Below are positions 40,798 through 53,638 of a stretch of 64,000 bases of DNA, in pieces; positions within the stretch are counted from its first letter, which is position 1, and each line of letters opens with the position of its first letter. The position numbers and the translations under genes are program-made. The notes beneath the pieces are model-generated. The model saw only the letters and a list, made by a program, of their open reading frames with translations, was not told the DNA's origin and ran no database searches. Source of the DNA: Balneola sp. GTDB taxonomy: Bacteria > Bacteroidota > Rhodothermia > Balneolales > Balneolaceae. The stretch is from contig JANQSE010000011.1 in NCBI GenBank assembly GCA_028284195.1, positions 18-64,017 of the forward strand, read 5' to 3'.

Positions 40798-40907
40798 AAA
40801 AAAAAATAGCCCCACAGAAGCAGGGCATAAGGATACTCGTATGAGCAGAGCCGACAGAGTCTAAAAGACATCTTTGATGTGATAAGACTCTTTTCGAGAT
40901 GAATAAA
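40798..40907 (-). ncRNA. tracrRNA
   Basis: 18-nt anti-repeat at 40887-40904 (ATTCATCTCGAAAAGAGT on the minus strand), then nexus-like hairpin (GUCU-UUU-AGAC), terminator GCCCUGCUUCUGUGGGGC plus U9; TATACT -10-like element at 40910-40915 (minus). Confidence 0.88.
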
Positions 40908-40943
40908 TGAGTATAACCATCTCATTCTTAAAATCAAATTGTC

Positions 40944-43900
40944 ATGAAGAAAATACTGGGAGTAGATTTAGGAGTAGCATCCATAGGTTGGAGCTTACTT
41001 GAAAAAGGAGAAGAAACGGGAAGAATAATTAAAAGCGGTTCAAGGATTTTTCAATCTAATGAACAACGGGCAGACTCAGCACCGGGGAAATCAGCCAAAT
41101 CGGATTGGGGTACAAAACGATCTGTTCGTAGGCAAAGAGATAGAAGAACACGCAGAAAGCAAAAATTATACAATCTGTTATTTAAAAATGGATTGGCACC
41201 TAAAAAAGAACTTCGAGATGAGTGGATAAAACTAAATCCATATTTACTTCGTGCTAAGGGATTGGATGAAGAATTGAGCTTAATTGAATTGGGGAGAGCT
41301 TTTTATCATTTAAATCAACATAGAGGATATAAGAGTAATCGAAAAGACGGAGAAGAAAAAGATGGGCCTGTAAGCAAGGGTATATCAAAAGTTGAAAACT
41401 TAATGAAAGAATATGAAGCCAGAACCTTTGGCGAATATTGCTTTAAGATATTTGAAAACCATTTTGAAGAAAGTAAAAAACCAGTCGATGACGATTGGAG
41501 AATACGAGACAACTATACTCATCGTAGTATGTTTATAGATGAATTCGAAAAGATTTGGGGTGCCCAACAGAAGTTTAATCCAGCTAAACTCAATAATGAT
41601 TTAAAGAAAGAAGTTTTCGATACCATTTTTTTCCAAAGAAAAATGAAAAGTCAAGCTCATCTGATTGGGAAATGTCCTCTTGAAAAAAACAAGAAACGAA
41701 TTCCCAAAGCACATTTACTTTTTCAGGAATTCAGAATTCAAAAAAATCTAAATAACCTTTCTTTGGCCGATGAAAACGGTATTCCAATATCAATGAGTTT
41801 GGAAAACAAGAAAAGTCTCTTTGAATTAATGAACAAGAAAGGTAAAGTTACCTTCACGGCACTTAAAACTGTTTTGGTTAAAGAGGGATTGATTGCAAAT
41901 AAGAACAACGTAGTTTTTAATCTTGAAGCTGGTGGTCGAAAAGAAATTGAAGGGAACAGAACTAATCAAAAGTTGTCAGATGACAAGGCTTTTGGAGAAG
42001 ACTGGTATAAATTAGATAGAGAATTACAGGATTACATTGTGTATGTGCTCATTCACTTTGACGATCCGAACAAGGTTAAAGAGAAAGCTTTGAACGAATG
42101 GAACCGGAACGAAGACCAGGCAATCTATCTCAGTCATCTTGTTCTTGAGAAGAACTATGCGGGTTTTTCTGAGAAAGCCATTAAAAAGCTACTTCCGTTT
42201 TTAAAAAAGGGAATGGAAGAAAGTACAGCTATCGAAGCTGTAGGATATGACTTATTTGATCAAAAGCAGGGTACTCATGATAAGCTTCTTATGCCTCCCG
42301 ATATTAGAAACTCAGTAGTATATCATGCACTTATTGAATTGCGAAAGGTAGTCAACGGGATCATTAGAGAATATGGAATGCCAGACATTATTCGAGTAGA
42401 GCTTACTAGGGATATAAAAGCAGGGTACGAACGGCGGCAGAAGATGACTGAAAAAATGCGGGAGTTAGAGAAGAGAAATGACAAAGCTCGTAAAGAATTA
42501 AAGAAGGCTCCTTTTAACAGGGAAGAACCTACTTATAGTGATATTCTTTGGTACAATCTCTGGCAAGAATGTGATAAAATATGCCCGTATACTGAAAAAT
42601 CTATTCCTGCGTCAGCATTTAATTCAGGAGAATTTCAGGTAGAGCATATCATTCCTTTTAGCCGCTCATTGGATGATTCTTATGCCAATAAAACGTTGTG
42701 TGAAGCCGATTTTAACAGAAAAAAGGGAAATAAAACACCTTGGGAATGTGTACAAGGGCGTTTAATTAGTGAAGATGACCTGCTACAACGAAAACGCCGT
42801 TTGCCCTGGAATAAACAGAAAAAGTTTATCCAGAAAACTACTGAAGAAAACTCTTTTATAAACCGACAGTTAAGTGATACCCGATACATTAGCAGAGAGG
42901 CTAGTTCGTATTTAAAGCAACTTGCATGTGAACGTGTGGAAGTAGTGAAAGGGCAAACGACTTCCCTTCTTCGCCACGTTTGGGGATTGAATGGAGTGTT
43001 AAATAAAGAAGACGAAGAAATGAAAACTCGGGATGATCATCGCCACCACGCTGTTGATGCTATTGTTGTAGCATTGACCTCCCGATCCATTCTAAAGCGT
43101 TTAAGCGATGAAAACAAAAAATTAAGTTTTGATGAATGGAAAAGCATAGAAGAAACAGGCAAGGAGCAATATGAGGAATTGAAACGCAGAGCAGAAGGAA
43201 GGCTTTGGCTAAGCTATCCCTGGCTAAGCTTTAGACAGGATGTGGAGCGAAGCATTAATGATATTACTGTTTCTCATAGGGTAAACAGGAAAGTCTCTGG
43301 AGCTTTGCACGAAGAAACATTTTACGGACCTACGGATGAACCTGCTCCTAAAAATAAAGAAATGATGGTTGTTCGAAAACCTGTACACAAGCTTAAAATA
43401 ACTAAACGCACAAATGATTTAGAAGCTATACGAGATGAAGGAATCAGAAAAATTGTAGACGAAGAGATAAAGAAGAGAGTAGGTACTGGACTTAGTTTAG
43501 AAAATGCGGTAAAGAGCCTGGAAAACGATCCCCCATATATTATTTCACCCAAAGCAAAAGTACCCATTCGTAAAGTGCGCTTATTAATGGAGAAACAACC
43601 TGAAATAATGCATGCTTTCGAAGATGAAACAGGTAAGGTATTTAAGCATGCTTTGTATGGTAGTAACCATCATATAGCTATATATGAAACCTTAGATAAG
43701 AAGGGGCAGCGAAAACAAGTTGGTTTTGTGGTTCCAACTCTAGAAGCTGCCCGAAGAATAAAAGACGGAGAGCCTATCGTTGATAAAACCTATCTACCAA
43801 ATCATACTTTTCTTTTTTCACTTTCTATAAATGATATGATTATAAATCATGAAGACGAAGAAATTTATAGAGTACAGAAAATCACTTCAGATACTCAAAT

Positions 43901-44033
43901 GACTTTTCGTAAAAATGAAGTTTCCTTAAAGGGATCAGTAGATCCAGGTGTATTAAGAAAAATGCCAGGAACTCTAAAAGCAACAAAAATTAAAATTTCT
44001 CCTATTGGAGAAGTTTTCCCGGCCAATGATTAA
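40944..44033 (+). CDS. cas9: Type II-C CRISPR-associated endonuclease Cas9 (compact, 1029 aa)
   Basis: RuvC-I ILGVDLGVASIG; Arg-rich bridge helix; RuvC-II IRVELTRD; HNH QVEHIIPFSRSLDDSYANKTLC...N; RuvC-III RHHAVDA. Confidence 0.97.
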   Translation: MKKILGVDLGVASIGWSLLEKGEETGRIIKSGSRIFQSNEQRADSAPGKSAKSDWGTKRSVRRQRDRRTRRKQKLYNLLFKNGLAPKKELRDEWIKLNPYLLRAKGLDEELSLIELGRAFYHLNQHRGYKSNRKDGEEKDGPVSKGISKVENLMKEYEARTFGEYCFKIFENHFEESKKPVDDDWRIRDNYTHRSMFIDEFEKIWGAQQKFNPAKLNNDLKKEVFDTIFFQRKMKSQAHLIGKCPLEKNKKRIPKAHLLFQEFRIQKNLNNLSLADENGIPISMSLENKKSLFELMNKKGKVTFTALKTVLVKEGLIANKNNVVFNLEAGGRKEIEGNRTNQKLSDDKAFGEDWYKLDRELQDYIVYVLIHFDDPNKVKEKALNEWNRNEDQAIYLSHLVLEKNYAGFSEKAIKKLLPFLKKGMEESTAIEAVGYDLFDQKQGTHDKLLMPPDIRNSVVYHALIELRKVVNGIIREYGMPDIIRVELTRDIKAGYERRQKMTEKMRELEKRNDKARKELKKAPFNREEPTYSDILWYNLWQECDKICPYTEKSIPASAFNSGEFQVEHIIPFSRSLDDSYANKTLCEADFNRKKGNKTPWECVQGRLISEDDLLQRKRRLPWNKQKKFIQKTTEENSFINRQLSDTRYISREASSYLKQLACERVEVVKGQTTSLLRHVWGLNGVLNKEDEEMKTRDDHRHHAVDAIVVALTSRSILKRLSDENKKLSFDEWKSIEETGKEQYEELKRRAEGRLWLSYPWLSFRQDVERSINDITVSHRVNRKVSGALHEETFYGPTDEPAPKNKEMMVVRKPVHKLKITKRTNDLEAIRDEGIRKIVDEEIKKRVGTGLSLENAVKSLENDPPYIISPKAKVPIRKVRLLMEKQPEIMHAFEDETGKVFKHALYGSNHHIAIYETLDKKGQRKQVGFVVPTLEAARRIKDGEPIVDKTYLPNHTFLFSLSINDMIINHEDEEIYRVQKITSDTQMTFRKNEVSLKGSVDPGVLRKMPGTLKATKIKISPIGEVFPAND

Positions 44034-44922
44034 ACGCACGGTTGAAATATCGAGTGGTCCTGTTCATCTTACTATAAAGCATAAACAAATGCTGTTAAAG
44101 AAAGGGGAGGATGTACATTCCATTCCGGTAGAAGATCTAGGATTACTGGTGCTTTCTCATCCTGCCATCAGCTATACCCATCAGCTGCTATATGAGTTGT
44201 TAGAGCAAAATGTAGCTGTGCTTTTTTGTAACCGACAGCATATGCCCGAAGGACTATTGCTTCCTTTCGAGGACAACCAACTTCATCAAGCTCGTTTACA
44301 AATACAGGCAGAGGCAACTAAACCACTAAAAAAGAGACTATGGCAACAAGTTGTAAAGCAGAAAATTAAAGCTCAGTCAACAGTTCTTAAAGAAAAACAT
44401 GGGAATGATGATGGCTTAAAACTATTAATTCCAAAAGTTAAATCAGGTGATCCATCAAATGTGGAGGCAAGAGCTGCAAAACAATATTGGAAGAGTTTAT
44501 TTAAAGACAGCGAATTTCGTCGCAAATATGACTCTCCCGATCTGAATGCATTATTAAATTATGGATATGCGGTGATTCGGGCTGCGGTGGCGAGAAGTTT
44601 AACAGCGGCAGGACTTCATCCATCTATGGGGATTCATCATCATAACCAATACAACCCATATTGTTTAGCCGATGATATGATGGAGCCTTTACGGCCATTG
44701 GTGGATGCTGAGGTATATGATTTGTATGAACACCATAGCACGTTGAAAATTGAAGTAAACAAAAAAACAAAAAAGCCGTTACTCCAGCTTCTTACGAAAG
44801 AGGTTCGAATTAACGGGATGAAGTATCCTTTGTTAGAGAGCCTTCATTTGATGGCTTCATCTCTGGCTCAATGCTATGCCAGAGAAATAAAAAGAATTGA
44901 ATTTCCAACTCAGCCCGGTTAA
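44026..44922 (+). CDS. cas1: CRISPR-associated endonuclease Cas1 (type II)
   Basis: Probable start MIKRTVEIS overlapping the cas9 stop; VEARAAKQYW; LNALLNYGYAVIRA; LHPSMGIHH; LADDMMEPLRP. Confidence 0.96.
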   Translation: MIKRTVEISSGPVHLTIKHKQMLLKKGEDVHSIPVEDLGLLVLSHPAISYTHQLLYELLEQNVAVLFCNRQHMPEGLLLPFEDNQLHQARLQIQAEATKPLKKRLWQQVVKQKIKAQSTVLKEKHGNDDGLKLLIPKVKSGDPSNVEARAAKQYWKSLFKDSEFRRKYDSPDLNALLNYGYAVIRAAVARSLTAAGLHPSMGIHHHNQYNPYCLADDMMEPLRPLVDAEVYDLYEHHSTLKIEVNKKTKKPLLQLLTKEVRINGMKYPLLESLHLMASSLAQCYAREIKRIEFPTQPG

Positions 44923-45326: not shown

Positions 45327-46219
45327 AATCTAATTCATCTCGAAAAGAGTTCAAACCACAGCAATCCCGTGTTGTAGTTGTCTTCAATTCGGAATCTAAT
45401 TCATCTCGAAAAGAGTTCAAACCACAGCATGTTATCATTTTAGTCCCGTCATTTTAATAATCTAATTCATCTCGAAAAGAGTTCAAACCACAGCATGAGA
45501 TATTACCTGCTTTAATATTATTAGAATCTAATTCATCTCGAAAAGAGTTCAAACCACAGCGAAGTCTGACTGAGAGGTTGCGACTTCAGGAATCTAATTC
45601 ATCTCGAAAAGAGTTCAAACCACAGCCCCTTGTTAGATATTTCTATGATTGTCATAAATCTAATTCATCTCGAAAAGAGTTCAAACCACAGCTGATAAGA
45701 ACTCTGTTTCTATTACCATGACAATCTAATTCATCTCGAAAAGAGTTCAAACCACAGCATCGGCTTCGTTTATTTCATCAATGAGAAAATCTAATTCATC
45801 TCGAAAAGAGTTCAAACCACAGCGATTTCACACAGTTGATCAATGGAGGGTTGAATCTAATTCATCTCGAAAAGAGTTCAAACCACAGCCATCTCCAAAT
45901 AATCTTTAAGCTGCACTAAAATCTAATTCATCTCGAAAAGAGTTCAAACCACAGCAGATAGATTCTACTGGATTAAAGGGTTATAAATCTAATTCATCTC
46001 GAAAAGAGTTCAAACCACAGCAGAGACGGGTCATGCGATTACAGAGAATGAAATCTAATTCATCTCGAAAAGAGTTCAAACCACAGCGAAGTATTATGAT
46101 TAGTCCCATCGTCAATGAATCTAATTCATCTTGATAAGAGTTCAAGCCCCAACACTGTATTGTATTTACTAAATAATAGCGTTAACCTAATTCATCTTAA
46201 TAAGAGATCAAATCCCAAC
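45327..46219 (-). CRISPR. Type II-C CRISPR array: 14 repeats (12 identical, 2 variant) and 13 spacers
   Basis: 36-bp repeat AATCTAATTCATCTCGAAAAGAGTTCAAACCACAGC starting at 45327, 45393, 45459, 45525, 45591, 45657, 45723, 45788, 45854, 45920, 45986, 46052; variants at 46118 and 46184; spacers 30 bp (one 29 bp); crRNA strand deduced from tracr complementarity. Confidence 0.98.
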
Positions 46220-46274
46220 CCCAACCTCCTGTCCAAGTGAATTGGTTAAAATTTAAATAAACATCCATTCTCCT

Positions 46275-47648
46275 ATGGCTCATAAAATTCTCAGGAAAGA
46301 TGATTATCTGCCCAAATCAAGTCCGGTTGGGCCATTCATATTCCTCATGCTTCTGTCCGCAATTCTCATGCTTGTTGACATTGAGAGGATGGTATTTTGG
46401 GGAGTCCTGGCTGGAGTATCACCTTTTTTCGGTCTCTGGTTTCATGCGAGGTGCACTAAAAAGGCATACGCTCGCTGGGCCCAAGATATATCGAACCTTA
46501 TAAGTAGCAAGCAGGCCATTAACTACAATGATCTGTTCTATTGGACCGATTTAACCGTATGGCACAAAATAGATTTTAACGTCGCCAGCGATAAGTTTCT
46601 AAAAGAAGTTTTCGCCCGGACAGAAAAGAACTGGGAACTCGATGGCCTCTACACTGCTTTCCTCAAGCGCTATTCTATAGAGGAGCTGACTAAGATCATA
46701 GCTTCAAACCAGAAACTCAGGTATGAAGATCAGCAAACCATGCTTAAATATGTTGAACGGATCAAGGACGGGGTCCCCACCTCTTTCTGGGACCTAACTC
46801 TAGAAGAAATCAACGGAGTGGACTATTATGAAGCTGAATTAGAGCGAGCCTTGCGCGAAGATGACATTCCTGCCCTAGAAAAAGCACTTCAAAAAATAGA
46901 TGAATTCAGTTTCAACGACTATCCATACGAAGAAGCATCGACGCAAGCCTTGCTCACTATCGTAGAAAAAGCACTGACTCAAGAGGGTGCCTTTAATGGA
47001 GCTTATCATCTCATTGGACGCGATAGTACCTTAAGCGATTTGGCCCACGCAGTAGCAAAAAACCCCAACCTCACCTTACAAGAAAAAGCAGGATTCCTGA
47101 TGCCTAGGATCGAAGATGAGGGCTATGACTTGAATCTTATTGATGAAAACCAGCCTGAGTATGCTTTCATTGAGATGGCACGAAAACAAGCCCGCAGGGA
47201 AGTAAAAGCAAAAGAAGCTTTAAAACAAAAAGAAAGCGAACTCATAGCTGTAATGGATAATGTTCGAGCGAAGCGCGAAGATCGAATCCGTGCGACAAAA
47301 GCCTTCGCAACGATACATTCAAAGTGGGCTATCAGCGTGTGTTCTGGTACTCAAGCCGCATGGCATTGTCCCGAATGCGCCATCAAGGGAACCTATTCGA
47401 TGAAGCGTGACATGCGAGACGTTTACGAAAAGCAGCTTGAAGCAGGAGCTATGCTGCGAGGAGAAGAAATCTGCGGAACCTGCAACATATCTTTTACCAC
47501 CGCGCAAATATACCGAGGTGAGCTAGATGCTGTATTTATCGATATAAGCTGCAAAAACTGCCACTATGATTGGACCGGGCCTGTTGAATCTTTTATCGAC
47601 AGTAATTGCAAGCAATGTAACGCTCCTTTTATTTCCAGTCATCTATAA
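46275..47648 (+). CDS. Hypothetical membrane protein: 2 TM, coiled coil and four CxxC motifs
   Basis: 457-aa ORF; two N-terminal hydrophobic segments; CPEC, CGTC, CKNC, CKQC at the C-terminus. Confidence 0.8.
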   Translation: MAHKILRKDDYLPKSSPVGPFIFLMLLSAILMLVDIERMVFWGVLAGVSPFFGLWFHARCTKKAYARWAQDISNLISSKQAINYNDLFYWTDLTVWHKIDFNVASDKFLKEVFARTEKNWELDGLYTAFLKRYSIEELTKIIASNQKLRYEDQQTMLKYVERIKDGVPTSFWDLTLEEINGVDYYEAELERALREDDIPALEKALQKIDEFSFNDYPYEEASTQALLTIVEKALTQEGAFNGAYHLIGRDSTLSDLAHAVAKNPNLTLQEKAGFLMPRIEDEGYDLNLIDENQPEYAFIEMARKQARREVKAKEALKQKESELIAVMDNVRAKREDRIRATKAFATIHSKWAISVCSGTQAAWHCPECAIKGTYSMKRDMRDVYEKQLEAGAMLRGEEICGTCNISFTTAQIYRGELDAVFIDISCKNCHYDWTGPVESFIDSNCKQCNAPFISSHL

Positions 47649-47734
47649 ATAATATCTTCCTAATTAAATAATATCTTTCTAATTTATTCAGAGCCTCGAG
47701 TCACACACACTCTTAACTTCAGCCATCTTTAAAC

Positions 47735-48232
47735 ATGTCCGATTCATTTATAGTCATTGTTATCATCAGTATCGTTGCGATTGTCTTTATACTCAGCTCT
47801 ATTAAGAATAAAAAGATCAATGAACTCCCTTTCGTCATGCGACTGCATAAGATTAAAGAAGAGATGGAAAGCAAGTGTTCTGAGTGTAAGCAAGAAATGG
47901 ATCAATTAAAAAATTCAGATCCGAATAAAGTAGAAGTCATTCGTTATAAATTAGACGCATACAACGCAGAGAAAGCAAAGTATGTTAGAATGGTCGATGC
48001 TGCTAAAAGAATTGCTAAAAAGATCGGCTCAGAATCTGATACCCAAGCATACAATGCAAAACTTGAAGGAGTCCTAAAAGCCAGTGGACGAGACACACTC
48101 GCAAGCCTTTCTCAGTTACAAGCCATATTTGCCGTGCGTGGAGAATCGCCTTTCAACCAAACGGTGGAGCAGTTAATTCAAGCTTACAAAAGTAATAAAA
48201 CGATTACGCCTGAATTATTTCTGGATACTTAG
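47735..48232 (+). CDS. Hypothetical signal-anchored coiled-coil protein
   Basis: 165-aa ORF; N-terminal FIVIVIISIVAIVFIL; Lys/Glu-rich helical body. Confidence 0.75.
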   Translation: MSDSFIVIVIISIVAIVFILSSIKNKKINELPFVMRLHKIKEEMESKCSECKQEMDQLKNSDPNKVEVIRYKLDAYNAEKAKYVRMVDAAKRIAKKIGSESDTQAYNAKLEGVLKASGRDTLASLSQLQAIFAVRGESPFNQTVEQLIQAYKSNKTITPELFLDT

Positions 48233-48284
48233 TCAAAAGCAGCCATTCTCGATGGCTTACTCCGATGTCATTACATAGACGCCA

Positions 48285-48487
48285 TCCCAATCTTCATCGG
48301 CTGGATATGTTATTTTATCTTTAACAAATCATTTTCCATCTTTTTTTAAAAATGCTACTTTGCTCGAATCTTTTTTAATTTCCATTTCTTTTATTTGATC
48401 GATATCAAATGAAAGAAGAGACTTTACCTTGGGAGATGTATTTTTAGTTTTTTTAAAAGCTAAATCATATAAGAATAAGAAGTATAA
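48285..48487 (-). pseudogene. Decayed DUF4340-like gene fragment
   Basis: LYFLFLYD...KSLLSFDIDQIKEMEIKKDSSKVAFLKKDGK*FVKDKITYPADED; TGA where DUF4340-type proteins have W; no start codon. Confidence 0.55.
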
Positions 48488-48501
48488 CCTAACCTCGCAT
48501 C

Positions 48502-49980
48502 ATGAAGTACATCCAAGTATCCGGTAACCAACGATCTCCTGCTTATTGTTCAGACAATGCCTGCCCTTGTCCTGGTCTCGGAGCGGAAATCCCTCACGGG
48601 CAGGGATATATGTATATATCCAAGGATGTAGCTGACTTTCGCCAAGATGCTCTCTCTGAGAGTGAAGCCGAGCGTAAAATTAAAAGCCTGGCGACATCGG
48701 GGAATTTCACCATGTTCGACGCGAGTGTATTTTCTCCCACTTTGATGTGTGAGCTAGGGGCAAAGAAGAGACAGCTCGATTTGGAAATGGCTGCGAGTGA
48801 TGCCAAGCACTGGTGGAATACGGGTGAAGTGCCTTGCCGTCCAACATCCATTAAGGGTGAAGAGGATAGCTCTATCGGTAGTGATGAAGACGCCAGCAAA
48901 CTCTTGAGCGATGCAGATGATGTTGTAGCAGACCTCAATGCGCTTCTAGGGAAAGAGGGCGATCTGGATACGGATGCTTTGCAAGCCATCAACGATAGGA
49001 TGGATACGCTTGTAAAAGATGCCGGGGCATATGTAGCTAACGATTCGCTTTCGGCAGCATTTAAAGAGATCTTAGAACAATTTCGCGAGACAGAAAGTGG
49101 GATCAATGAATTATTCGCATCTTCAGATTGGGAAGATAACCATTATAACTTAGTGGATCTTTACACTGAAAAATTGGGGCTCCTTGCTGAGTATGCTGAA
49201 GAGGTCTTGGAGGGTGAAGAATTGGAGATGGCACTAACCCGTTACCATAACATCCTAACGGAATTTAAAAATAAATTAGAAGTGCTGGAGAAGGATATTG
49301 AATCCGATTTAGCAGACGCGAAACGTGATGAGTCAAAGAATGTTTCATCAGGAGATCCTAAACCTAAATCAAATAAAACGGTTGTTTGGGGGGGTGTCCT
49401 TTTATTAATCATAGCTGTCTGGTTCCTCTACAATAGAGCTGAAAATAATGCTAAAGAGTATGAAGCTCTTTTAAAAGAAATGAATGAGACTGAGCGTAGC
49501 ATTGAGAGCGACACGGAACAGAATGCTCAGACCATAGAGTTTCTTGGGTATTGGAATTGGTATATTGAGAATCCTCAAACTCAAGGGGTCTCGGTTGGTT
49601 TTCAGAATAACTCGACGAAGCCAGTGAAGGCTTTTAAAGGAACGATTGCGAGTTTAGATGACTTTGGAGATCCTACAGATAATCGGATCGATTTTCTATT
49701 CGACTCAAAGTCTATTTATCGAGGCGTGGACGAGTCTGGTGCCTTTTATAGTACTTTGCACTATGTGATTCCTCCCGGTGAAAAATTGTTTATAACCCAA
49801 ATAGCCTCAGGTGCTGGGGTAGTTGGCTACGTTTCTTCAGAATTTATAGACGTATTTTATGACTACTATATAAAGGTGGGTGATGGCTTTGAAGTGACGA
49901 GTTATAATTATTTAAATAATATTACTGCTAGCCCTAAAGATATAGAATTAAGGATAGAAAAAGTTTTGTACGATGAGTAG
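48502..49980 (+). CDS. Hypothetical bitopic membrane protein with Cys-rich N-terminal domain
   Basis: 492-aa ORF; CSDNACPC...LMCE...HWWNTGEVPC; acidic helical linker; TM VVWGGVLLLIIAVWFLY; coiled coil; beta-rich C-terminal domain. Confidence 0.8.
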   Translation: MKYIQVSGNQRSPAYCSDNACPCPGLGAEIPHGQGYMYISKDVADFRQDALSESEAERKIKSLATSGNFTMFDASVFSPTLMCELGAKKRQLDLEMAASDAKHWWNTGEVPCRPTSIKGEEDSSIGSDEDASKLLSDADDVVADLNALLGKEGDLDTDALQAINDRMDTLVKDAGAYVANDSLSAAFKEILEQFRETESGINELFASSDWEDNHYNLVDLYTEKLGLLAEYAEEVLEGEELEMALTRYHNILTEFKNKLEVLEKDIESDLADAKRDESKNVSSGDPKPKSNKTVVWGGVLLLIIAVWFLYNRAENNAKEYEALLKEMNETERSIESDTEQNAQTIEFLGYWNWYIENPQTQGVSVGFQNNSTKPVKAFKGTIASLDDFGDPTDNRIDFLFDSKSIYRGVDESGAFYSTLHYVIPPGEKLFITQIASGAGVVGYVSSEFIDVFYDYYIKVGDGFEVTSYNYLNNITASPKDIELRIEKVLYDE

Positions 49981-50042
49981 CCGAGGCTCTCTAGGAGTTA
50001 AAGTGCTGATACCGGTCAGGCAAATGCCGGGCTTACCCATCC

Positions 50043-50256
50043 CAGTTGAAACAATGTTCTCAACCGGTCTGAAATAAGATCTTCGCCGAGGGGGGGAGAA
50101 AAAATCATAGGCTAGGGTTTCATAGTCGGGAAACTATATCACATCGGCAGACTCAACAAAGAAGCTTAAAGCCGAATAAAGTTGCTGGGTGGTTTGGAGC
50201 GAAGCCGTGATCACCAGCACGGACTGGCCTGCCTCGACGTGCCGCTGATAATACCA
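50043..50256 (-). pseudogene. mfd: Decayed N-terminal fragment of transcription-repair coupling factor
   Basis: RHVEAGQSVLVITASLQTTQQLYSALSFFV...I*FPDYETLAYDFFSPP, frameshift in the G7 run, then EDLISDRLRTLFQL; matches the Mfd motif ETLPYDxFSPHQDIISxRLxTLYQL. Confidence 0.8.
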
Positions 50257-50260
50257 GGAG

Positions 50261-50428
50261 AAATTACCTATTTTTCGATTTTCGATAAAGCCATTAAAGT
50301 CAATCTTGCCACTGGCATTGGTTGCAACTCTGATTTCGCCCGGTGTGCAGGCTGAAAGGGCTCGTGTTGCGGTAGCGGCCAATTTTTATTCTGTGATGAA
50401 AGAGTTGTCGGATTCTTTTGAAATCTAA
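50261..50428 (+). pseudogene. modA: 5' fragment of molybdate ABC substrate-binding protein, truncated by a CRISPR repeat
   Basis: Signal peptide KPLKSILPLALVATLISPGVQA, then ERARVAVAANFYSVMKELSDSFE (ModA VAVAANF motif); no ATG; stop TAA supplied by the repeat at 50426-50428. Confidence 0.75.
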
Positions 50429-50457
50429 TTCATCTTGATAAGAGATCAAATCCCAAC
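50422..50457 (-). CRISPR. Isolated CRISPR repeat (variant type)
   Basis: AATCTAATTCATCTTGATAAGAGATCAAATCCCAAC; 34/36 to the repeat at 46184, 33/36 to 46118, 30/36 to consensus. Confidence 0.93.
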
Positions 50458-50623
50458 GGAACGAGAATCCTTACTGGTAACAGCTTTGTGGTTACATCAA
50501 AATCTTTCATACAACTTAGCTGAGAATTGGAGTGCTTTACTTCGAAAAATTGGTATGGGTTGTTTTAAAAAATCTTGAATAGATTTGTTAGCAAGGATAT
50601 CTCTGATAAACACACAAAACATT

Positions 50624-51523
50624 ATGAAACACATCCACAAAATATTCTTCATCCTCTTACTTACAACAACTACCATGGTACAAGCTCAGAACAAAAAACT
50701 AAAGATATACATCTCTGCCGATATGGAGGGGGTTGTCGGGGCAGTTACCGGCGACCAACTCGGTCCCGGAGGCTTTGAATACGAACGCTTTCGCAAGTTT
50801 ATGACTGCAGAAGTAAATGCCTGCATAGCAGCAGCCCGCGAAGCCGGTGCAGACGAGATTCTTGTCAGCGATTCGCACGGCAACGGGCAGAATATCCTCA
50901 TCGAAAAATTGCCTGATGATGTGATGATCGTAAGATCGTGGCCACGCGTACTGGGCATGATGGAAGGCATTGACGATTCTTTTGACGGAGCCATCTTCCT
51001 GGGCTACCACGCCAGTACCAACAGCAAAGAAGGTGTAAGGGCGCATACCATGTCCAGCGCCAACATCACCTCGCTTAAAATCAACGATATGGTAATGCCC
51101 GAAGCAGGCATCAATGCACTGATTGCCGGACATTTTAATGTGCCCGTTATTCTGGTTACAGGAGACGATATTGCCGTGAAAGAAACACAAGACCTGATCG
51201 GGGATGTAGAAGGCGCTGTTGTGAAATGGGCGAACAGCTTCCACTCAGCAAAAACCCTTACCCCCAATGCCGCTTATGAGGTAATCGGCAAAAAAACCAA
51301 AGCGGCCATAAAGAGAATCAAAGAGTTTAAACCTTACCAATTAGAAGGCCCCTTAACCCTCGACCTCAGCCTGAAAAACTACCGCCCCGTAGAGCTTTTA
51401 CAGTATTATCCCGGAGCCGAGCGAATCGATTCGCATACCATCCGCTTCGTTGGTAAAGACATTGTTGAAATCTCCGTATTCCTTCGGTTTGTAACCGGGT
51501 ACAACATCACGCTGAAACCCTAA
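50624..51523 (+). CDS. dppA: M55 family D-aminopeptidase (DppA-like), secreted
   Basis: IYISADMEG; VSDSHGNG; LGYHA; AHTMSS; PEAGINA; VTGDD; signal peptide; probable start MKHIHK. Confidence 0.92.
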   Translation: MKHIHKIFFILLLTTTTMVQAQNKKLKIYISADMEGVVGAVTGDQLGPGGFEYERFRKFMTAEVNACIAAAREAGADEILVSDSHGNGQNILIEKLPDDVMIVRSWPRVLGMMEGIDDSFDGAIFLGYHASTNSKEGVRAHTMSSANITSLKINDMVMPEAGINALIAGHFNVPVILVTGDDIAVKETQDLIGDVEGAVVKWANSFHSAKTLTPNAAYEVIGKKTKAAIKRIKEFKPYQLEGPLTLDLSLKNYRPVELLQYYPGAERIDSHTIRFVGKDIVEISVFLRFVTGYNITLKP

Positions 51524-51528
51524 CCGGA

Positions 51529-52584
51529 ATGAAAAAAACCGCCATAGCCATTACCGGAGGTGAACTGCACACCAACTATGCAAAAACAACCCACGGCCTT
51601 ATCAGAGGTTCCGATCGTTTTGAGTTATTGGCCGTCATCGACCATAAGCATGCAGGAGCGGATGTGGGGGAGTTTCTGGACGGCAAAAACAGAAATATTC
51701 CAATAGTTGCTTCCGTAGATGAAGCAGTAAAACAATTTGCGCACATCGACTGCCTTATTGTAGGCGTGGCAACCAAAGGGGGTATTTTATCTGCTGATTT
51801 ATTAAATGCCATAAAAAAAGCCATTGCCTGTAAACTTAATATCGTTAACGGGTTGCACCATTTATTGTGCGAACAGCCGGATATTGTATCACTGGCACAG
51901 GAGTACGATGTAGAATTGATCGATATTCGAAAACCCAAACCAATCAAAGACCTGCATTTCTGGACGAGTGAAATATTTAATGTGGATGTTCCCGTAGTGG
52001 CGGTTTTGGGTATGGATTGTGCTTTGGGCAAGCGCACTGCCACCCGGCTGATGCTGGAAGCGTGCCGGGCAAAAGGCATAAAAGCAGAGATGATCTATAC
52101 CGGCCAGACCGGCTGGATGCAGGGCAGCAAATATGGCTTTATCTTCGACTCCACACTCAACGACTTCGTCTCGGGTGAACTGGAACATGCAATTGTTTCT
52201 TGTTGGAAAGAAGAAAAACCGGACGTGATATTTTTGGAAGGGCAGTCTGGCCTCCGAAACCCCAGCGGGCCTTGCGGCTTGGAAATGCTCATTTCCGGAA
52301 ATGCCAAAAAAGTGATTCTGGTATGTGCGCCCGGGAGACAATACTTTGACCATGAGCCTGCGTGGGGGGAGATCCCGTCCATCGAATCGGAAATGGAAAT
52401 CATTGCAACATTTGGCAGCGAGGTAGTCGGTCTGGCATTAAATACCGAAGGACTTTCTTCGGAAGAAGCAGAAGCCGTTCAGTCTGAGTTAGAAGCCTCA
52501 TTGAATATTCCGGTTGTTAACCCCATTAAGGAAGGAGTACAAAGATTAGTAACTGCGCTAAAAATGACCGTCCATGAAAATTAA
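51529..52584 (+). CDS. DUF1611 family protein (DgcN-like D-amino-acid N-acetyltransferase)
   Basis: YAKTTHGLIR; IVNGLH; GMDCALGKRT; TGQTG; FLEGQSGL. Confidence 0.85.
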   Translation: MKKTAIAITGGELHTNYAKTTHGLIRGSDRFELLAVIDHKHAGADVGEFLDGKNRNIPIVASVDEAVKQFAHIDCLIVGVATKGGILSADLLNAIKKAIACKLNIVNGLHHLLCEQPDIVSLAQEYDVELIDIRKPKPIKDLHFWTSEIFNVDVPVVAVLGMDCALGKRTATRLMLEACRAKGIKAEMIYTGQTGWMQGSKYGFIFDSTLNDFVSGELEHAIVSCWKEEKPDVIFLEGQSGLRNPSGPCGLEMLISGNAKKVILVCAPGRQYFDHEPAWGEIPSIESEMEIIATFGSEVVGLALNTEGLSSEEAEAVQSELEASLNIPVVNPIKEGVQRLVTALKMTVHEN

Positions 52585-53638
52585 AGCAATCGAGGCCTTT
52601 TCAAAAAATCTGGCGCTTACCAAACCGTACAGTATTGCTTACAAAACAGTTTCCGATGTTGAAAGTGCTTTTCTGTTCATCACGCTCGAAAATGGAATTA
52701 CCGGCATCGGAGCCGCCAACCCTGCTAAGGAAGTCGTCAACGAAACTCCTGCGGAAACCCTTGCAAATTGTCAGTCTGACTATTTCCAATCCTTTGTTGG
52801 CAAAGACATCCGGCATTTCCGAAAAATGATTCAGGATATTCATGTTGCTTTTCCCGACAAACCGGGTACACAGGCCGTTTGGGATATTGCCCTGCATGAT
52901 GCTTTTGCAAAATACCTTGGGATTCCTGTGGTAGCGATTTACGGGCAGCACATCAAATCGCTGCCCACATCGGTAACCATTGGTATTATGGGCGTGGAAG
53001 ACACACTAAAGGAAGCTGCTGAGTACAAAAAATCGGGCTTCAATGTGCTCAAAGTAAAGACCGGAGAATCTGTTGAGCTGGATATTGAACGAATCCTGAA
53101 ACTCCGCGAACAGCATAGCGGCATGGTTATCCGTGTAGATGCCAACCAGGGCTATGACCGGGAAGCATTGCTGCAATTTGTGAGTGCAGTAGAAAAAGCG
53201 GGTGTAGAATTGATAGAACAGCCCATTCCTGTGGGGAAAGAACAAGAACTAGCTGATGTTGACGAAAATATCAGGAAAATACTGGTGGCCGATGAAAGCC
53301 TGAAAAACAGCGCCAGTGCTATACAATATGCCGGTGTGCCTCAACTCTTCGGTATTTATAACATCAAACTGATGAAATGTGGTGGAATTTTCGGGGCGTT
53401 CGAAATAGCTGCTATTGCAAAAGCAGCCAATATTGACCTGTTTTGGGGCTGCAACGATGAAAGCATCGTGAGCATTACGGCGGCCTTGCATGCCGCGTTC
53501 GCTTGTCCCCATACCAAATACCTCGACCTCGATGGCAGCTTTGACCTGGCAGAAGATCTGGTAAGCGGGGGATTTACGCTAAAAGACGGAATACTAAGTA
53601 TCAACGAAAAACCGGGGTTCGGTTTTGAACTCAACTAA
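52574..53638 (+). CDS. Enolase-superfamily dipeptide epimerase (L-Ala-D/L-Glu epimerase / DgcA-like)
   Basis: DIALHD; TSVTIGI; KVK catalytic motif; RVDANQG; IEQP; ADES; NIKLMKCGG; LDLDG. Confidence 0.92.
   Translation: MKIKAIEAFSKNLALTKPYSIAYKTVSDVESAFLFITLENGITGIGAANPAKEVVNETPAETLANCQSDYFQSFVGKDIRHFRKMIQDIHVAFPDKPGTQAVWDIALHDAFAKYLGIPVVAIYGQHIKSLPTSVTIGIMGVEDTLKEAAEYKKSGFNVLKVKTGESVELDIERILKLREQHSGMVIRVDANQGYDREALLQFVSAVEKAGVELIEQPIPVGKEQELADVDENIRKILVADESLKNSASAIQYAGVPQLFGIYNIKLMKCGGIFGAFEIAAIAKAANIDLFWGCNDESIVSITAALHAAFACPHTKYLDLDGSFDLAEDLVSGGFTLKDGILSINEKPGFGFELN

Follow-up and report, generated by a model that had tools for sequence, protein, structure and literature searches.

Horizontally acquired gene remnants are short, promoterless pieces of truncated housekeeping genes that keep a donor-like composition, carry disabling lesions and lie in a variable region of the recipient genome. 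In CRISPR arrays interrupted by insertion sequences (IS) or transposons, a repeat is parted from its array by kilobases of non-spacer DNA, and old variant repeats are found at the break. SPDIR uses microhomologies to insert ectopic strands, needs neither a dedicated recombinase nor Ku, and leaves patchwork insertions of unrelated origin; the patches are reportedly tens of bases long. The Cas1-Cas2 integrase measures prespacers of about 30 nt and cuts at the first base of a repeat, and spacer acquisition is leader-proximal. A newly integrated spacer lies between near-identical, co-oriented repeats, with its boundary at the first base of a repeat.

Here we describe a locus that resembles each of these systems in some respects and differs from each of them in others. 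In the window, which is the whole 64,000-nt stretch of a Balneola sp. contig that was analysed, a decayed fragment of mfd lies beside a fragment of modA, and the modA fragment abuts a CRISPR repeat that is detached from its array (Table 1). The mfd scrap belongs to two known classes, the horizontally acquired gene remnants and the CRISPR arrays interrupted by insertions. Unlike the usual gene remnants, it has a donor and a recipient of different phyla, it is one of two non-neighbour genes placed head-to-head, and one end of the pair is flush with a CRISPR repeat. At this locus, unlike in the IS-interrupted arrays, neither a transposase nor terminal inverted repeats were found, and no target-site duplication apart from the CRISPR repeat; its insert includes chromosomal scraps from another phylum. 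The two pieces, of about 140 and 250-290 bp, exceed the patches of SPDIR, and in contrast to Cas1-Cas2 spacer integration the insert has 4202 nt rather than 30 nt and sits at the old end of the array. What is unusual in the scrap is its cross-phylum donor and its repeat-flush boundary. We think it probable, with some reserve, that the pair is a dead relic of horizontal acquisition, in which a 5' piece of a gammaproteobacterial mfd and the first 46 codons of modA were brought together by illegitimate recombination.

Table 1. Features of the mfd-modA locus and of the neighbouring CRISPR array (positions in the window).
Feature	Position	Strand	Remarks
cas9	40944-44033		array lies downstream
cas1	44005-44922		array lies downstream
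Type II-C CRISPR array	45327-46219	+	36-nt repeats, 12 of them identical; two variants at 46118 and 46184
R14, last repeat of the array	46184-46219		
Rest of the R14-R15 stretch	46220-49980	+	three intact ORFs, of no assigned family, after 55 nt
Intact ORFs of the R14-R15 stretch	46275-47648, 47735-48232, 48502-49980		
Decayed Mfd N-terminal fragment, core	49998-50241	-	residues ~31-112 of P0009, the closest intact Mfd
1-nt deletion in the mfd scrap	50040-50041	-	first frame restored, LFQLG/MGKPGICL
G7 run (C7 on the coding strand)	50088-50096	-	4-nt insertion (CCTC, coding strand) relative to three intact relatives
In-frame TAG stop in the mfd scrap	50134-50136	-	CAG (Gln) in the closest relative, L021
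Junction zone	50242-50284	.	mfd identity at random level, without ModA homology; TTTTCGA twice
modA 5' fragment	50285-50421	+	signal peptide and first strand/helix; cut after codon 46
R15, detached variant CRISPR repeat	50422-50457	+	34/36 identical to R14; abuts the modA scrap directly

The translation of the mfd scrap matched NCBIfam NF007966 (transcription-repair coupling factor) at positions 41-114 of 1148 (E=2.1e-9), and the match falls in the N-terminal (UvrB-like D1a) module of Mfd. For a search of 5.8 billion proteins, the fragment was set into a full-length Mfd scaffold to pass the length filter, and the fragment alone was scored. This search returned 13 full-length Mfd proteins with complete sets of Mfd Pfam domains, the best of them P0009 (E=1.2e-27), and gave 71% identity over a 96-residue query region. 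The scrap and the gene for P0009, which is the mfd gene of metagenome contig L021, share 80% nucleotide identity over 240 nt and 64 of 80 amino acids. An earlier note on this DNA had described a decayed Mfd N-terminal fragment, and the family and full-length matches on the minus strand bear this out.

The note had also ended the fragment at 50043 after about 70 codons, which is too short: the homology runs to at least 49998, and weak homology possibly extends to 49981 on one side and to about 50256 on the other, giving a scrap of about 250-290 bp or 80-95 codons. An edge at 49981 would be flush with the stop codon (49978-49980) of the 492-aa ORF. The 5' end of mfd is missing, as had been seen before, and the loss there amounts to only about 30 codons; everything beyond codon 112-120 or so, the downstream 90% of the gene, is absent as well. 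Upstream of about 50245 the identity to the L021 gene falls to random (3-6 of 15 in a gapless nucleotide comparison). The same random identity rules out an mfd 5' end concealed beneath the modA signal peptide.

Both the TAG codon and the frameshift in the G7 run that the note had reported are real. The frameshift is caused by an insertion of 4 nt, placed at 50088-50091 with its exact spot within the run ambiguous, which shifts the frame by +1, and a third lesion, the 1-nt deletion at 50040/50041, had been missed. The conceptual translation of the minus strand reads ...HVEAGQSVLVITASLQTTQQLYSALSFFVESADVI, the stop, FPDYETLAYDFFSP, a frameshift, GEDLISDRLRTLFQLG, a frameshift back, and MGKPGICLTGISTL...; past the deletion, tblastn with an intact relative and DNA alignments follow the first frame again, through MGKPGICLTGISTL, to at least 49998. 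In addition to the stop, the +4 insertion and the -1 deletion, the scrap has no start codon, and the RNA-polymerase-interacting, helicase and TRCF C-terminal parts of Mfd are all absent. The scrap is a pseudogene fragment and not a member of the working Mfd family.

The nearest relatives of the mfd scrap are of gammaproteobacterial type, in agreement with the earlier proposal that it came from another taxon. A scan of the genome collection with the scrap returned two loci, both in gammaproteobacterial metagenome-assembled genomes (MAGs). The scrap shares 57 of 87 amino acids with a Pseudomonadales MAG (66-67% identity), versus 13 of 40 with the N-terminus of the host Mfd, and its signature FPDYETLAYDFFSP..GEDLISDRLRTLFQLG, rightly called gammaproteobacterial-like before, is identical over 30 residues to the Mfd of the Pseudomonadales MAG. 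Among 81 Pseudomonadales-order genomes, 79 have an Mfd match to the scrap; since the best reaches 67% (G041) and the next only 48%, the donor clade is narrow. No donor closer than 80% was found in the genome, metagenome and protein libraries searched.

Around the mfd gene of L021 there are genes for proteins with PF06835 LptC and PF03968 OstA-like domains, an ABC ATPase, SIS/CBS and Hydrolase_3 domains, in a layout like kdsD-kdsC-lptC-lptA-lptB, together with genes for a BipA/TypA-like GTPase and FliP/FliQ-type export genes. This neighbourhood would fit a gammaproteobacterium. Separately, the region 513-5365 of L021, 4-9 kb upstream of mfd, contains a group II intron reverse transcriptase gene, two DDE transposase genes and a MerF gene; mobile DNA borders the mfd region in this lineage and could have aided the mobilisation of part of mfd.

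The composition of the scrap (GC 0.50, GC3 0.63) can be set beside a GC3 of 0.59 in the relative's mfd and of 0.29-0.45 in host genes. The scrap differs from the L021 gene at 16, 4 and 28 sites in the first, second and third codon positions, respectively, with no drift towards A+T (24 versus 20). Such a pattern indicates that most of the divergence arose between working genes and that the time spent as junk was short.

The modA scrap opens with ATA at 50285, which is probably a former ATG. It reads I (perhaps once M) and then KPLKSILPLALVATLISPGVQA/ERARVAVAANFYSVMKELSDSFE, in which a Sec-type signal peptide (KPLKSILPLALVATLISPGVQA/E) runs in frame into the first strand/helix of ModA, RVAVAANFYSVMKELSDSFE. 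We built a custom ModA profile (HMM) from four Pseudomonadales-order ModA sequences and searched the host genome as 76,759 six-frame pieces: the scrap was the sole match (E=1.7e-6), and no gammaproteobacterial-type ModA was found with this profile elsewhere in the genome. TIGR01256 and the Pfam SBP models did not match the scrap; TIGR01256 starts at about ModA residue 29 and overlaps it by about 20 residues. The piece of 46-47 residues gave no significant match in two very large libraries, where the lone match, P0022, was a spurious repetitive protein.

In 10 of the 81 Pseudomonadales-order genomes, the best match of the modA scrap lies in an open frame of 191-307 aa. The best six-frame match in G041 is the N-terminus of a 256-aa ORF that TIGR01256 identifies as ModA, with ModB after it; the ModA of the reference L004 scores 199 bits with TIGR01256 and adjoins ModB. 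Three further matched frames that we inspected have ModA-like N-termini. Against 150 other genomes from the class of the host, the scrap gave a single match, which was spurious. On weaker statistics than those for mfd, we take the modA scrap to be ModA-derived and of gammaproteobacterial type. Since the mfd scrap lacks a start codon and about 90% of the gene and carries a stop and two frameshifts, and since the modA scrap lacks its ATG and ends at codon 46, neither can make a protein.

The two scraps lie head-to-head with their 5' ends facing each other, and not back-to-back as the earlier note had it. Its statement that no intergenic DNA separates them is approximately right; about 30-40 nt that cannot be assigned to either gene lie between the last clear mfd base (about 50241-50256) and the start of modA at 50285, and a 7-nt tandem duplication, TTTTCGA, occupies 50272-50286. 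The mosaic of many scraps that the note had envisaged was reduced to two pieces: 49981-50042 is a continuation of mfd, and in six frames nothing recognisable as a third scrap was found in 48233-48501, 46220-46274 or 50458-50623.

Could the two scraps have arrived as one piece? If mfd and modA were divergent neighbours in the donor, a single fragment of about 0.6-1 kb would have been captured, and an internal deletion of mfd codons 1-30 and of the intergenic promoter region would later have left the 7-nt duplication. Both scraps are indeed 5' parts that point away from each other, as divergent neighbours do, and both are gammaproteobacterial in type; moreover, the clade is not uniform in the gene 5' of mfd (a GGDEF gene in L002 and L003, a GST gene in L021). 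However, the two genes are not neighbours in any of the nine order genomes that have both, a comparison that the earlier note had called for: they are 686 kb apart in G041, 711 kb apart in G059 and on separate contigs in the seven others. L021 has no modA within 10 kb of its mfd, nor do L002 and L003 in the roughly 6 kb on each side of theirs, and the GC3 of the scraps is unequal (0.63 for mfd and 0.44 for modA, both pieces being short). Since mfd and modA are not neighbours in the relatives examined, a join by rearrangement is the simplest reading, and we consider the capture of one piece doubtful.

The scraps form the right end of a 4202-nt stretch (46220-50421) between R14 and R15. In addition to cas9 and cas1, an ORF of the size of cas2, a candidate for that gene, lies upstream of the array. 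R14 and R15 are co-oriented and have common substitutions that are absent from R13, and there is no gap between the last modA base (50421) and the first base of R15 (50422). This setting, which the note on the scraps did not draw on, weighs most in the reading of the locus. The other 13 spacers are 29-30 nt long. Beyond R15, inspection by eye showed no additional repeat (8/36 matches), and in relatives with the same repeat the arrays finish in a truncated repeat followed by unrelated genes, without any scrap material. We also considered R15 as the tracrRNA anti-repeat and rejected this; the anti-repeat and a terminator were located at about 40798-40910 (minus strand), on the upstream side of cas9, and no tracrRNA-type element was found after the arrays of relatives. 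No RNA family, promoter or terminator was found above chance in the scrap region.

The three intact ORFs of the stretch have a host-like GC3 of 0.37-0.45, versus 0.63 for the mfd scrap. Searches with Pfam, PHROG and PADLOC did not point to a transposase among them, and no terminal inverted repeats were found at 46220/50421. A plasmid or phage vector was rejected, as 46220-50457 had no match in PLSDB or INPHARED. A search of 5.8 billion proteins gave no full-length homologue of the 492-aa ORF. Its only homologues are N-terminal: the homology covers 21-24% of the query at 46-54% identity, in proteins that vary widely in length and domain composition.

Two further repeat-like sequences were observed. 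Inside the 457-aa ORF, positions 46819-46843 form an inverted partial CRISPR repeat (21/25 to positions 3-27 of R13), which may be a relic of recombination or a repeat-like stretch of the mRNA able to pair with the tracrRNA. Outside the array and R15, only this sequence and one orphan repeat match that well in the 2.68-Mb genome. The orphan, AATCTAATTCATCTTGATGAGGTTTCTTTTCACAAC at 6020-6055 of contig C3, is of the variant type, with its first 18 nt identical to the variant repeats, and by eye it lies in a non-coding-looking gap before an ORF with an ATG start. It points to an earlier site of an array or to a further rearrangement mediated by repeats.

The repeats on both sides of the stretch invite a reading of it as a 'giant spacer'. 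On this reading Cas1-Cas2, by a full, half-site or otherwise aberrant reaction, would have integrated 46220-50421 at a repeat border and duplicated the variant repeat to give R14 and R15. In accordance with this, R14 and R15 are 34/36 identical and co-oriented, with substitutions missing in R13; the modA scrap stops exactly at the first base of R15, the point at which the integrase cuts; and the stretch has neither a transposase nor terminal inverted repeats. These are points of position only. Against them, the stretch is 4202 nt long, far from the usual prespacer length, and we know of no multi-kb integration by Cas1-Cas2; the site is the old, cas-distal end of the array and not the leader-proximal end. 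Furthermore, the 30 nt after R14 (46220-46249) have a normal spacer length, and an equally good parse is R14 plus this spacer plus an insertion at the border between the spacer and R15, in which case the inserted DNA may begin at 46250 without any duplication of the repeat. Thus, we regard a Cas1-Cas2 integration of the entire stretch as improbable, and we are equally sceptical of the broader proposal that either the adaptation machinery or repeat-templated recombination inserted kilobases of mixed foreign DNA at the repeat border with duplication of the repeat.

An assembly chimera or contamination, with reads from a gammaproteobacterium sequenced alongside the host built into the contig, is very unlikely. 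The genome is a draft of 19 contigs, and the junctions are known from the assembly alone. However, a living contaminant would give an intact essential gene, and these scraps are broken by a stop, the +4 and -1 changes and a lost ATG; two opposed pieces of less than 300 bp, 14 kb inside the contig end, are unlike the output of an assembler. In addition, the estimated contamination is 0.05%, and the assembly holds no other part of either gene. Finally, a local duplication and later decay of the host's own mfd, which lies intact on contig C4 (about 411084-408055), can be set aside almost entirely, as the comparison with the host gene called for earlier gives 13/40 amino acids, where the gammaproteobacterial-type relative shares 64/80; the scrap has no DNA match elsewhere in the genome, and no second copy was found in the 2.68-Mb host genome or in 40 relatives.

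To the right of R15, positions 50624-53638 hold an operon of dppA (M55 peptidase), DUF1611 and dipeptide epimerase genes with a GC of 0.46-0.48. DppA, the only protein of the operon that was searched for, is absent from 24 close relatives; a different family of the host's class gives its best matches (58-66%), and it occurs in 1 of 81 Pseudomonadales-order genomes, at 46%. On the strength of these matches we rejected a larger gammaproteobacterial transfer that included the operon and had the scraps at its edge. The operon looks like a separate acquisition from within the class beside the stranded repeat. Since the operon would come from within the class and the scraps from a gammaproteobacterium, the neighbourhood appears to be a patchwork of separate acquisitions, of which the scraps would be the only gammaproteobacterial part.

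We return to the reading that we favour, a dead relic acquired by horizontal transfer and illegitimate recombination. The mfd piece would have come from a gammaproteobacterium of a narrow clade in GTDB Pseudomonadales. Illegitimate recombination, either independent of homology or using microhomology, would then have linked the foreign chromosomal fragments with one another and with host DNA; dependence on microhomology is probable for this join. The old end of the CRISPR array may have offered a recombination-prone and non-essential site for the insertion, and decay of the fragments would have begun since then. The data show what the scraps are, that they are foreign, which lesions they carry and where they lie; the joining mechanism and the order of events are those that we infer. 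Because no Ku domain was found anywhere in the host genome, classical NHEJ is an unlikely joining route. Random illegitimate recombination leaves unexplained why modA is cut flush at the first base of a CRISPR repeat.

Taken alone, the scrap is what horizontal transfer ordinarily leaves behind, a scar and not a working part. It also gives a clean mark, open to dating, of the passage of DNA from a gammaproteobacterium to a distantly related host, and the retained donor composition together with the few neutral changes suggests recent contact. The larger interest lies with the whole 4.2-kb stretch rather than with the scrap. Its repeat-flush position makes it a locus for asking whether the ends of arrays, or the adaptation enzymes, take up long foreign DNA. 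If Cas1-Cas2 or repeat-templated recombination did place the stretch at the repeat border, CRISPR arrays would occasionally capture genes and cross-phylum DNA, beyond the 30-nt spacers.
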